Source of the DNA: Escherichia coli
GTDB taxonomy: Bacteria > Pseudomonadota > Gammaproteobacteria > Enterobacterales > Enterobacteriaceae
DNA length: 64,000 nucleotides
Assembly: GCF_048403405.1 (NCBI RefSeq)
Contig: NZ_CP183135.1
Reading direction: 5' to 3' (one strand)
Shown here: positions 1-3,000 of the stretch, piece by piece
How positions within the stretch are numbered: position 1 is the first letter of the stretch
Layout: every line of letters begins with the position of its first letter
Made by a program: the position numbers

Positions 1-3000
1 ATATGGCCGCGCAGTGGCACGTGTCCTTGATTATCACCAGTTACCAGAAATTTTAGGCGTGGTGGCCGGAAGCAGTATCGTCTGGGTCGCTCCTCGGATG
101 GTGAAGCGTGTCGCTCTGGTGCATAAGCAAATTAATTATTTACTAAGAACGTATTAATATTCACAAATGCCCGCTTGTATTGACTAATACGTAAGCGTCA
201 ACGGAGCACCGTATTGACGCTTATTTATTGGTGAGAACTACGTTCCATGGCAGGAGTTCGTCAACACGGTTGGAGGGCCATTCCGGCAGTACGCTCAGAA
301 TATGGCGCAGATACGCTTCCGGATCGATACCGTTCAGACGGCAGGTGCCGATCAGCCCGTACAGCAGTGCACCACACTCGCCGCCGTGATCGCTACCGAA
401 GAACACGTAATTTTTCTTTCCGAGACAGAATGCACGAAGCGCTCTTTCCGCTGTGTTATTGTCCGCCTCCGCCAGACCGTCATCACTGTAATAACAGAGG
501 GCGTCCCACTGATTCAGTACATAGCTGAACGCTTCGCCCAGCCTGGATTTTTTCGACAGCGTGCCTGAGCCCGCAGATATTCTATTTCCCGTTCATCTTC
601 TTCGATCTTTTCTTCGGCACGTGCCAGTGCAGAGCGCAGGAAGGCCTCCGTCTCTTCAACCAGACTCAGTTGCTGGTCTTTCTGACGGAGCTGGCTTTCC
701 AGTTCTGCAATGCGAATGAGGTATTTCTGACTCATGGCCGTTTTTATAATGCGGCCAGGCGTTTTTTACAACATTGTCAGGGCGTTAAGGCGGGATGTTT
801 TTGGCTGACGCCAGTCCAGCTTATCGAGGAGCATTGCCAGTTGCGAGCGGGTAATGGATACCTTGCCGTCACGTACCACAGGCCAGATAAACTGGCCTTC
901 CTCCAGGCGTTTGGTGAACAGGCACAGACCATCAGCATCAGCCCAAAGAATTTTAACGGTGTCACCCCGTCGGCCACGGAAGATAAACAGGTGACCGGAG
1001 AAGGGATTATCATTCAGCACATGTTGTACCTGTTCTCCCAGTCCGTTGAAGGATTTACGCATATCGGTAACGCCGGCAACGAGCCAGATACGGGTACCTG
1101 ATGGGAGTGAGATCATCTTCCCCTCCCGGTCAGTTCACGAATCAATACAGTGAGCAGCTCTGGTGAAGGATTTTCCAGCGTCATGTTACCGTGACGGAAC
1201 TCCACCTTGCAGGAGCTGGCACTGACAGTAGTCTGAGTGGATAAGGACGGAGTAAGAGCAGCCATCGGTTCTTTCGGCTCATCAGGCGTTATCTCTACAG
1301 GTAATAATTCAACGCCTGCGTCAGAAGTGGTTGTCACCGGAATACGCCGTGATATACGCCCTTCGTTTTGCCAGAGTCTGAGCCATTTGAAAATAACATT
1401 ATCATTGACGCCATTTTCTCGTGCAATCTGGGCCACACAAGCACCGGGTTGTGATGCCAGTTCAACCATACGAATTTTGAATTCATTCGAATACTTTTTA
1501 CGAGGTTCTTTTCGTCAGTCCTGTAATTCCATACTTAGATGTCCGTCTGTGTCAGATGGGCGTCTAAGGGTAATGACTCCAACTTATTGATAGTGTTTTA
1601 TGTTCAGATAATGCCCGATGACTTTGTCATGCAGCTCCACCGATTTTGAAAACGACAGCGACTTCCGTCCCAGCCGTGCCAGGTGCTGCCTCAGATTCAG
1701 GTTATGCCGCTCAATTCGCTGCGTATATCGCTTGCTGATTACGTGCAGCTTTCCCTTCAGGCGGGATTCATACAGCGGCCAGCCATCCGTCATCCATATC
1801 ACCACGTCAAAGGGTGACAGCAGGCTCATAAGACGCCCCAGCGTCGCCATAGTGCGTTCACCGAATACATGCGCAACAACCGTCTTCCGGAGACTGTCAT
1901 ACGCGTAAAACAGCCAGCGCTGGCGCGATTTAGCCCCGACATAGCCCCACTGTTCGTCCATTTCCGCGCAGACGATGACGTCACTGCCCGGCTGTATGCG
2001 CGAGGTTACCGACTGCGGCCTGAGTTTTTTAAGTGACGTAAAATCGTGTTGAGGCCAACGCCCATAATGCGGGCAGTTGCCCGGCATCCAACGCCATTCA
2101 TGGCCATATCAATGATTTTCTGGTGCGTACCGGGTTGAGAAGCGGTGTAAGTGAACTGCAGTTGCCATGTTTTACGGCAGTGAGAGCAGAGATAGCGCTG
2201 ATGTCCGGCGGTGCTTTTGTCGTTACGCACCACCCCGTCAGTAGCTGAACAGGAGGGACAGCTGATAGAAACAGAAGCCACTGGAGCACCTCAAAAACAC
2301 CATCATACACTAAATCAGTAAGTTGGCAGCATCACCTATTGCAGCGTTACTTATCCGGATTATCCTCAGAAGTGTAAATCAGCATTCTCCTTTGCTGATG
2401 CAATTGCATGCGGCAGGTATACGGACCGGTGATGCAGAGCGAATACTGTCCAGCGGTGAATGCTGGCAACGTCAGAAGACGCTGCTGACAGGAAGGGAAG
2501 TCAGTTTTATGAAAGGACTGTTCAGAATTGTGGATATGAAGCGGTGGTATCTGTGTCCGCAGGTACGGGTCGCGGATATCGTCCAGCTGAACGGGAATAT
2601 CCGGCCACGATCACGCCAGTGGTGGCAGTTATTCAGGATGGTGTCTCAGTGGCATGTTGATGTGGTTATCGTTGAGCGGCGTTCGTTCAGTATTGTTGCA
2701 GCAGTAGAGCTGGATGATGCCAGTCATTTACGACCGGAACGCAGACGCCGGGATATTCTTCTGGAAGAGGTTCTGAGGCAGGCTGGTATTCCGTTGCTCA
2801 GAAGCCACGATGCCAGAAAACTGCTGCAGATGACCGGAGAATGGCTGAATACAACAGGGGCTGATCAGCAGTCCCCGGAACATCGTAGCTGACGCCTTCG
2901 CGTTGCTCAGTTGTCCAACCCCGGAAACGGGAAAAAGCAAGTTTTCCCCGCTCCCGGCGTTTCCATAACTGAAAACCATACTATTTCACAGTTTAAATCA

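Follow-up and report, generated by a model that had tools for sequence, protein, structure and literature searches.

An ISEc23-like IS66-family remnant with an internal tnpC deletion on an Escherichia coli IncF plasmid

What is the DNA that lies between an arginine-repressor gene and a copy of IS1 on a mosaic multiresistance IncF plasmid of Escherichia coli, and how did an IS66-type transposase gene at this site come to be so short? We analysed a 64-kb stretch of the plasmid, which we call the window and from whose first letter all positions are counted. A first-pass annotation of the sequence had described a remnant of an IS66 element here, in which an N-terminal and a C-terminal piece of TnpC are separated by about 100 bp where about 1.2 kb would be expected. 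The questions that follow are which element the remnant derives from, what exactly has been lost from it, and whether a single parent copy accounts for what is left.

Extent and parentage of the remnant

Ungapped blastn alignment to intact elements places an ISEc23-like remnant of the IS66 family at positions 191–1568, with its genes on the minus strand; 1,378 bp are left of 2,505 bp. The remnant sits between the 3′ end of the plasmid arginine-repressor gene and a complete IS1 (1569–2336), and it aligns with intact copies at 97–99.5% identity without a gap. Intact relatives were drawn from complete E. coli genomes and PLSDB. Against the closest of them, an Escherichia albertii element designated L011, there are 10 mismatches in 1,378 bp and no gaps, and every retained feature is collinear; identity to four further copies (L002, L008, L009 and L010) is 97–98% by ungapped blastn. 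A tblastn search with the intact 530-aa TnpC found no other IS66-type sequence elsewhere in the 64-kb window.

Members of the IS66 family reportedly carry tnpA, tnpB and tnpC on one strand, with the tnpA stop codon and the tnpB start codon overlapping as ATGA. The remnant retains this order on one strand, with tnpA homology at 1113–1532, tnpB at 766–1116 and the tnpC pieces at 221–735, and its tnpA stop overlaps the tnpB start in the ATGA at 1113–1116. We hold with high confidence that positions 191–1568 are a dead ISEc23-like element, characterized by a 1,078-bp deletion in tnpC, a nonsense codon in tnpA and the loss of the left end. It is a fragment of an IS66 family member and not a functional member. 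Because no transposase is left and only one end survives, the remnant is probably unable to move. The object itself is already known, in that the public RefSeq record carries an incomplete IS66 transposase at this place.

The deletion junction in tnpC

The tnpC portion of the remnant consists of the following features.

221–565, minus strand: 3′ fragment of tnpC, codons 417–530 plus the stop codon (the last 114 aa), with no start codon of its own
566–735, minus strand: 5′ fragment of tnpC, start codon plus codons 1–57, N-terminal coiled-coil region
565/566, no strand assigned: deletion junction, with 1,078 bp of tnpC gone, a 1-bp microhomology (C) and a +1 frame change
514–735, minus strand: chimeric 73-aa open reading frame, TnpC residues 1–57 plus 16 out-of-frame residues, WP_000080227.1 in RefSeq

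Calling of open reading frames (ORFs) finds two on the minus strand, at 514–735 and at 221–406. The 61-aa product of the latter matches the Pfam C-terminal element DDE_Tnp_IS66_C (PF13817) with 64 bits at a cutoff of 30. When intact TnpC is used as a tblastn query, residues 1–57 align at 735–565 and residues 416–530 at 568–224. With every intact reference tested, the two fragments fall on one and the same TnpC; the reading that would have overturned the first-pass annotation, namely that the fragments belong to different proteins, is thus contradicted by the alignments and by tblastn alike. The spacer between them did not survive the analysis. In the translation of 221–736 in the frame of the C-terminal ORF, TnpC-like sequence runs on above the GTG at 406, through '...GTLSKKSRLGEAFSYVLNQWDALCYYSDDGLAEADNNTAERALRAF...', and same-frame homology to tnpC continues from 406 to 565, where the two pieces abut. 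The apparent gap of 100 bp arose because ORF calling began at the first GTG.

Alignment to intact copies fixes the endpoints. Relative to L002 (NZ_CP061760.1), window positions 188–565 correspond to 3501–3878 and positions 565–1568 to 4956–5959, both ungapped and at 97.3–97.6% identity. Relative to L011, positions 191–565 correspond to 563–937 and positions 565–1568 to 2015–3018, with 5 mismatches in each. The endpoints are identical against seven references (L002, L003, L004, L008, L009, L010 and L011). The references read …GCGTGCC/ATTCTT… and …TTCTATC/TGAGCC… at the two breakpoints, and the window reads …GCGTGCC/TGAGCC…, with one C in common. This single clean junction bears out the internal deletion proposed at first pass. 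The loss comes to 1,078 bp instead of about 1.2 kb, although the closest intact relative differs at 10 of 1,378 positions and the segment deleted from the true parent could deviate slightly from this length. Because 1,078 is no multiple of 3, the downstream part of tnpC is out of frame.

Intact TnpC comprises, in Pfam terms, LZ_Tnp_IS66 (residues 53–123), zf-IS66 (131–175), DDE_Tnp_IS66 (189–479) and the C-terminal element (487–523). Set against the endpoints, this domain map shows what went with residues 58–415: almost the whole leucine-zipper region, the zinc finger and some 78% of the catalytic DDE domain. A complete DDE transposase TnpC is absent: the NF033517 profile reaches 103.5 bits where its cutoff is 180, and is matched over profile positions 297–385 only. 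The 73-aa ORF at 514–735 has no NCBIfam match, and Pfam returns only coiled-coil matches below threshold; what RefSeq lists as 'hypothetical protein' WP_000080227.1 is a chimera that the tnpC deletion produced as a by-product. A promoter-like site on the plus strand (553–581) lies over the junction, in a region where the number of such sites is at chance level (3 found versus 2.3 expected).

A junction of this kind might also have been produced from two ISEc23-like copies, with tnpA, tnpB and the 5′ side of tnpC contributed by one, the 3′ side of tnpC and the right inverted repeat by the other, and recombination joining them. In keeping with this, the C-terminal side shows a somewhat greater mismatch density relative to the closest relative (5/375 versus 5/1,003), but this contrast falls short of significance (p = 0.15) and its direction is reversed against L002. 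Moreover, both parts put the same references in the same order, and homologous recombination would not yield a frameshifting junction with 1 bp of homology. We consider such a hybrid origin very improbable; mismatch densities that do not differ significantly between the two parts (Fisher p = 0.15 to 0.85) fit one parent copy that suffered a deletion.

The remaining genes and the two ends

Outside tnpC, the remnant and its borders hold these features.

766–1116, minus strand: tnpB (IS66 Orf2), intact, 116 aa
1113–1532, minus strand: tnpA (IS66 Orf1), cut short by a stop at codon 6 (TGG to TGA, window 1515–1517)
183–190, no strand assigned: presumed copy of the target-site duplication, ACTAATAC, 8 bp directly outside the right inverted repeat
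191–214, no strand assigned: right terminal inverted repeat (IRR), GTAAGCGTCAACGGAGCACCGTAT, beginning with GTAAGCG at 191
192–223, no strand assigned: hairpin with perfect 10-bp arms (192–201 and 214–223), the distal arm holding the tnpC stop codon (221–223)
1569–2336, minus strand: IS1, complete, 768 bp, truncating the IS66-type element

Both Orf1 and Orf2 had been taken as intact, and this held for one of them. Orf2 (tnpB) encodes a full 116-aa protein that scores 124.2 bits against PF05717 (cutoff 26.6) and 120.5 bits against NF033819 (cutoff 50), and that is 99.1% identical to the TnpB of L011. Orf1 (tnpA) is interrupted: codon 6 is TGG in 5/5 intact references compared (L002, L008, L009, L010 and L011) and TGA in the window. 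Homology to tnpA reaches the normal start at 1532, and the surviving ORF of 118 aa begins at Met22. Because the HTH_Tnp_1 domain of intact TnpA spans residues 11–61, this shorter ORF lacks the beginning of the domain. The RefSeq 'transposase' WP_059330006.1 is, then, a TnpA truncated at its N terminus owing to the nonsense mutation.

The right end is preserved. The IRR agrees with the left repeat of intact copies in 20 of its 24 positions, and in all copies compared the flanking sequences diverge directly outside GTAAGCG. Perfect 8-bp direct repeats abut GTAAGCG…CGCTTAC in L008 (CAGCTAGG), L009 (ATCAAAAA) and L004 (ACTAATTT). These duplications in three intact copies place the terminus at window position 191 and give the element a length of 2,505 bp, compared with 2,532 bp in ISEc23. 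An 8-bp target-site duplication is reported for IS66 in PMC6778807, which cites Machida 1984; beyond this duplication, the literature searched yielded nothing specific to the ISEc23-like remnant. By analogy, the ACTAATAC at 183–190 is presumably the surviving copy of an 8-bp target duplication. It occurs once in the window, so its partner would have been lost.

The first-pass annotation had also reported a hairpin with a 10-bp stem at 192–223 that overlaps the tnpC stop codon, and had suggested that it marks the terminus of the element. Both statements are supported: the arms are perfect, the outer arm is the tip of the IRR and pairs with sequence around the tnpC stop codon, and the 8-bp duplications of intact copies fix position 191. 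The minimum-free-energy model adds a G191–U224 pair and an inner 4-bp helix (201–204/209–212). The fold is stable (−18.5 to −20.5 kcal/mol over 51 nt; z-score −4.7 to −5.0), and 0/200 shuffled sequences folded as well. The hairpin is kept at the right end of 10 ISEc23/ISEc43-like copies. Most changes among them still allow G·U pairing on the tnpC-sense strand, and a single decayed copy accounts for the one compensatory change as well as for the three broken pairs. It is missing from the right end of ISEc8 and from the left repeat. As judged from these comparisons, the hairpin is a clade-specific, normal part of the right end of the intact element and not a product of decay. The 10 copies diverge too little to decide whether it is a selected RNA structure.

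An intrinsic terminator has a G+C-rich stem, a short loop and a T run directly after it. The tail of the hairpin reads TTTATTGG on the plus strand, and the tnpC-sense strand is without a T run. A consensus scan of positions 1–2400 on either strand made no terminator call at 192–223, and on that ground we rejected the hairpin as a rho-independent terminator. No Rfam family matched within 1–2400.

The left end fared differently. Alignment to the intact reference ends at 1568, 49 bp before the left terminus, and IS1 begins at that point; the far end is thus replaced by IS1, as had been noted at first pass. This IS1 is complete, with matches to PF03400, PF12759 and PF03811. Elements of the IS66 family have terminal inverted repeats that start with 5′-GTAAGCG at either end. 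The left inverted repeat is missing at the remnant, and the other CGCTTAC sites of the window lie far outside 191–1568. A simple insertion of IS1 consists of the 768-bp element with a direct target duplication, typically of 9 bp. No such duplication is present here, because the 9-bp flanks, GCGTCTAAG and TATTGCAGC, have unrelated sequences, and the DNA on the far side of IS1 is not IS66-type. Given these unlike flanks and the non-IS66 DNA beyond, we rejected a simple IS1 insertion. Instead, IS1 probably marks a deletion or recombination, possibly mediated by IS1 itself, that took away the left inverted repeat.

Distribution, history and relatives

The first 7.9 kb of the window is 99.97% identical to plasmid p4_2_1.1 (NZ_CP023835.1). 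Positions 7885–11328 are 100% identical to the same plasmid, with the match resuming past an IS3-family copy that is present only in p4_2_1.1, and the remaining window matches it in rearranged blocks. The RefSeq/PGAP annotation of NZ_CP023835.1, in window coordinates, reads as follows.

Ending at 157: arginine repressor
221–568, minus strand: 'IS66 family transposase, incomplete, missing N-terminus'
514–735, minus strand: 'hypothetical protein' WP_000080227.1
766–1116, minus strand: tnpB
1113–1475, minus strand: 'transposase'
1584–2281, minus strand: IS1A
2314–2892, plus strand: DUF2726 gene

Of 5,426 complete E. coli genomes, 296 contain a 70-mer that spans the tnpC junction; it occurs at 313 places, of which 301 are on plasmids. 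In PLSDB the junction is found in 248 plasmids (236 Escherichia, 12 Klebsiella and 2 Shigella). The argR/IRR junction, counted separately with a 140-mer, occurs in 297 genomes. A synthetic query that joins the argR flank to an undeleted tnpC was matched on no PLSDB plasmid, the best matches covering the IS part only (85%). The near-equal junction counts (296 and 297), together with the absence of an undeleted plasmid copy, fit a single insertion and a single deletion, and inheritance of both with the plasmid module is consistent with the whole distribution. A second query, consisting of window positions 1251–1568 plus the 49-bp left repeat, did not find the same copy with an intact left end. 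That query brought up independent intact E. albertii elements, among them the closest reference, L011.

These counts also bear on whether the short tnpC could be an artefact of assembly or sequencing, or a collapsed repeat. IS copies are often misassembled, and beyond this generality nothing specific speaks for such an explanation; the identical junction, seen in 296 E. coli genomes that were finished independently and in 248 PLSDB plasmids whose hosts include Klebsiella and Shigella, leaves it with next to no probability. The deletion is therefore taken as a real feature of the plasmid.

Could the remnant have been kept for a residual function? TnpB, the coiled-coil N-terminal peptide of TnpC (57 aa, within the chimeric 73-aa ORF) or both might act in trans on resident ISEc23-like elements, for example as a dominant-negative regulator; or the hairpin and the TTTATT that follows it might have been recruited to end argR/arc transcription, as its 3′ end or terminator. 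In favour of such a role are the intact tnpB, the stable hairpin 34 bp downstream of the argR stop, with its T-rich tail on the plus strand, and the retention of the remnant in about 5% of complete E. coli genomes, to which either role would contribute. However, hitch-hiking on a successful plasmid module fully accounts for the persistence, the terminator scan did not call the hairpin, and the 73-aa ORF fits no curated family. An active remnant is a very unlikely prospect, whether retention or present activity is meant, and we favour passive carriage of a dead element. Its biological weight is small; IncF multiresistance plasmids routinely carry IS copies in decay. The 565/566 and argR/IRR junctions could mark lineages of the plasmid module.

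We propose the following history. An ISEc23-like element of 2,505 bp would have inserted 33 bp downstream of the arginine-repressor gene in an IncF plasmid module. Three independent lesions, numbered here without an implied order, then disabled it: (1) one 1,078-bp deletion in tnpC, probably by illegitimate recombination, which left the 565/566 junction with its 1-bp microhomology and shifted the frame; (2) the change of codon 6 of tnpA to a stop; and (3) loss of the last 49 bp, the left inverted repeat among them, through an IS1-associated rearrangement. Thereafter the remnant would have been inherited passively with the plasmid. Because no ancestral copy was found at the site, the sequence of events and a deletion in one simple step are inferred and not observed.

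Among known elements, ISEc23 provides the name (PGAP; E. coli Ecol_867, L004, 2,532 bp). It shares the tnpA–tnpB–tnpC layout and the 8-bp target duplication, and the first 30 bp of its right end, which include most of the hairpin, are identical to those of the remnant. Its TnpC is 96.2% identical to that of the nearest intact relative of the remnant, and its DNA is 91.8% and 94.4% identical to the two parts of the remnant. By contrast, the parent lineage of the remnant is 2,505 bp long, 27 bp shorter, and is labelled only 'IS66 family' by PGAP; the window copy further departs from ISEc23 in its tnpA stop codon and in the loss of the left end and of 1,078 bp from tnpC. In ISfinder naming, isoforms are elements whose transposases have an amino acid identity of 95% or more and/or whose DNA identity is 90% or more. 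Under this convention the parent would be classed as an ISEc23 isoform, with the IS name itself resting on PGAP labels. The closest intact copy found, L011, lies at 563–3067 of the E. albertii IncFIA plasmid NZ_CP099889.1 and is 99.3% identical over 1,378 bases; unlike the remnant, it is intact: it encodes a TnpC of 530 aa and a TnpA of 139 aa, and has an inverted repeat at each end. Further intact 2,505-bp ISEc23-like elements were seen in E. coli (L002, L008, L009 and L010).

ISEc8 and IS66 proper have the same family architecture and share with the remnant the terminal GTAAGCGT and an internal motif, CCGTATTGAC. However, the TnpC of ISEc8 is only 60–64% identical, for which reason we rejected ISEc8 as the parent, and its right end forms no hairpin. 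Alignment to ISEc8/IS66 references had been recommended at first pass as the way to define the deletion endpoints; alignment did define them, but ISEc23-like elements, and neither ISEc8 nor IS66 proper, proved to be the right reference. A last counterpart is the yoeD pseudogene of E. coli K-12, in cryptic prophage CP4-44, in which 159 bp are 99.4% identical to window positions 191–349, beginning at the same GTAAGCG terminus. It, too, is a fixed 3′ remnant left by this IS lineage, but it is far shorter than the plasmid remnant, is chromosomal, and is without tnpA, tnpB and the 5′ part of tnpC.

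Products and by-products of the remnant's decay

Two RefSeq proteins annotated in the collinear plasmid p4_2_1.1 (NZ_CP023835.1) fall within the ISEc23-like remnant:

514-735, minus strand: WP_000080227.1, 'hypothetical protein', a chimeric TnpC N-terminus
1113-1475, minus strand: WP_059330006.1, 'transposase', an N-terminally truncated TnpA

Both are products of the remnant's decay, and hundreds of plasmid annotations carry them onward. On the antisense strand, the tnpC deletion junction (565|566) also lies within a sigma-70-like site (553-581, plus strand; TCGACA, 17-nt spacer, GATATT). 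Such sites occur in the region at chance level (2.3 expected versus 3 found), and this one is therefore probably meaningless.

The IS1 edge and the wider plasmid

At the IS1 copy that truncates the remnant, a neighbouring gene overlaps the end of IS1 at 2314-2336 and has its annotated start within the left inverted repeat of that element. It appears that an IS1-associated rearrangement truncated this DUF2726 gene at its 5′ end, and that its annotated start codon is fortuitous and derived from IS1. This gene and four Rfam matches elsewhere in the window are as follows:

2314-2892, plus strand: annotated DUF2726 gene (PF10881)
5941-6031, minus strand: CopA antisense RNA of the IncFII replicon (RF00042, 99 bits)
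12099-12177, plus strand: class 1 integron attI / 'AAC_AAD leader' (RF02912)
32012-32093, minus strand: class 1 integron attI / 'AAC_AAD leader' (RF02912; 71 and 69 bits for the two matches)
46930-46999, plus strand: IS10 RNA-OUT (RF00240, 99 bits)

The CopA match adjoins repA regulatory genes; the annotation of the collinear plasmid puts these at about 5557-6973. The two RF02912 matches, which face opposite ways, imply that the resistance region holds either two integron cassette arrays or one integron segment that was duplicated and inverted. The RNA-OUT match is probably an unannotated remnant of an IS10 end; around it, the collinear plasmid annotation gives only IS1 and IS6 fragments.

Other IS66-family copies

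Outside its blocks of collinearity with the window, p4_2_1.1 carries a second, different IS66-family element (L012 45120-49051), the tnpC of which is split by an IS100 insertion; this element has no counterpart in the window. In E. coli K-12, yoeD, a pseudogene of the cryptic prophage CP4-44, preserves 159 bp from the 3′ part of an element in the window remnant's IS lineage:

L013 1501-1659 (K-12 ER1821R); NC_000913.3 around 2078519: yoeD remnant

Window 191-349 is 99.4% identical to the yoeD remnant, and both start at the GTAAGCG terminus.
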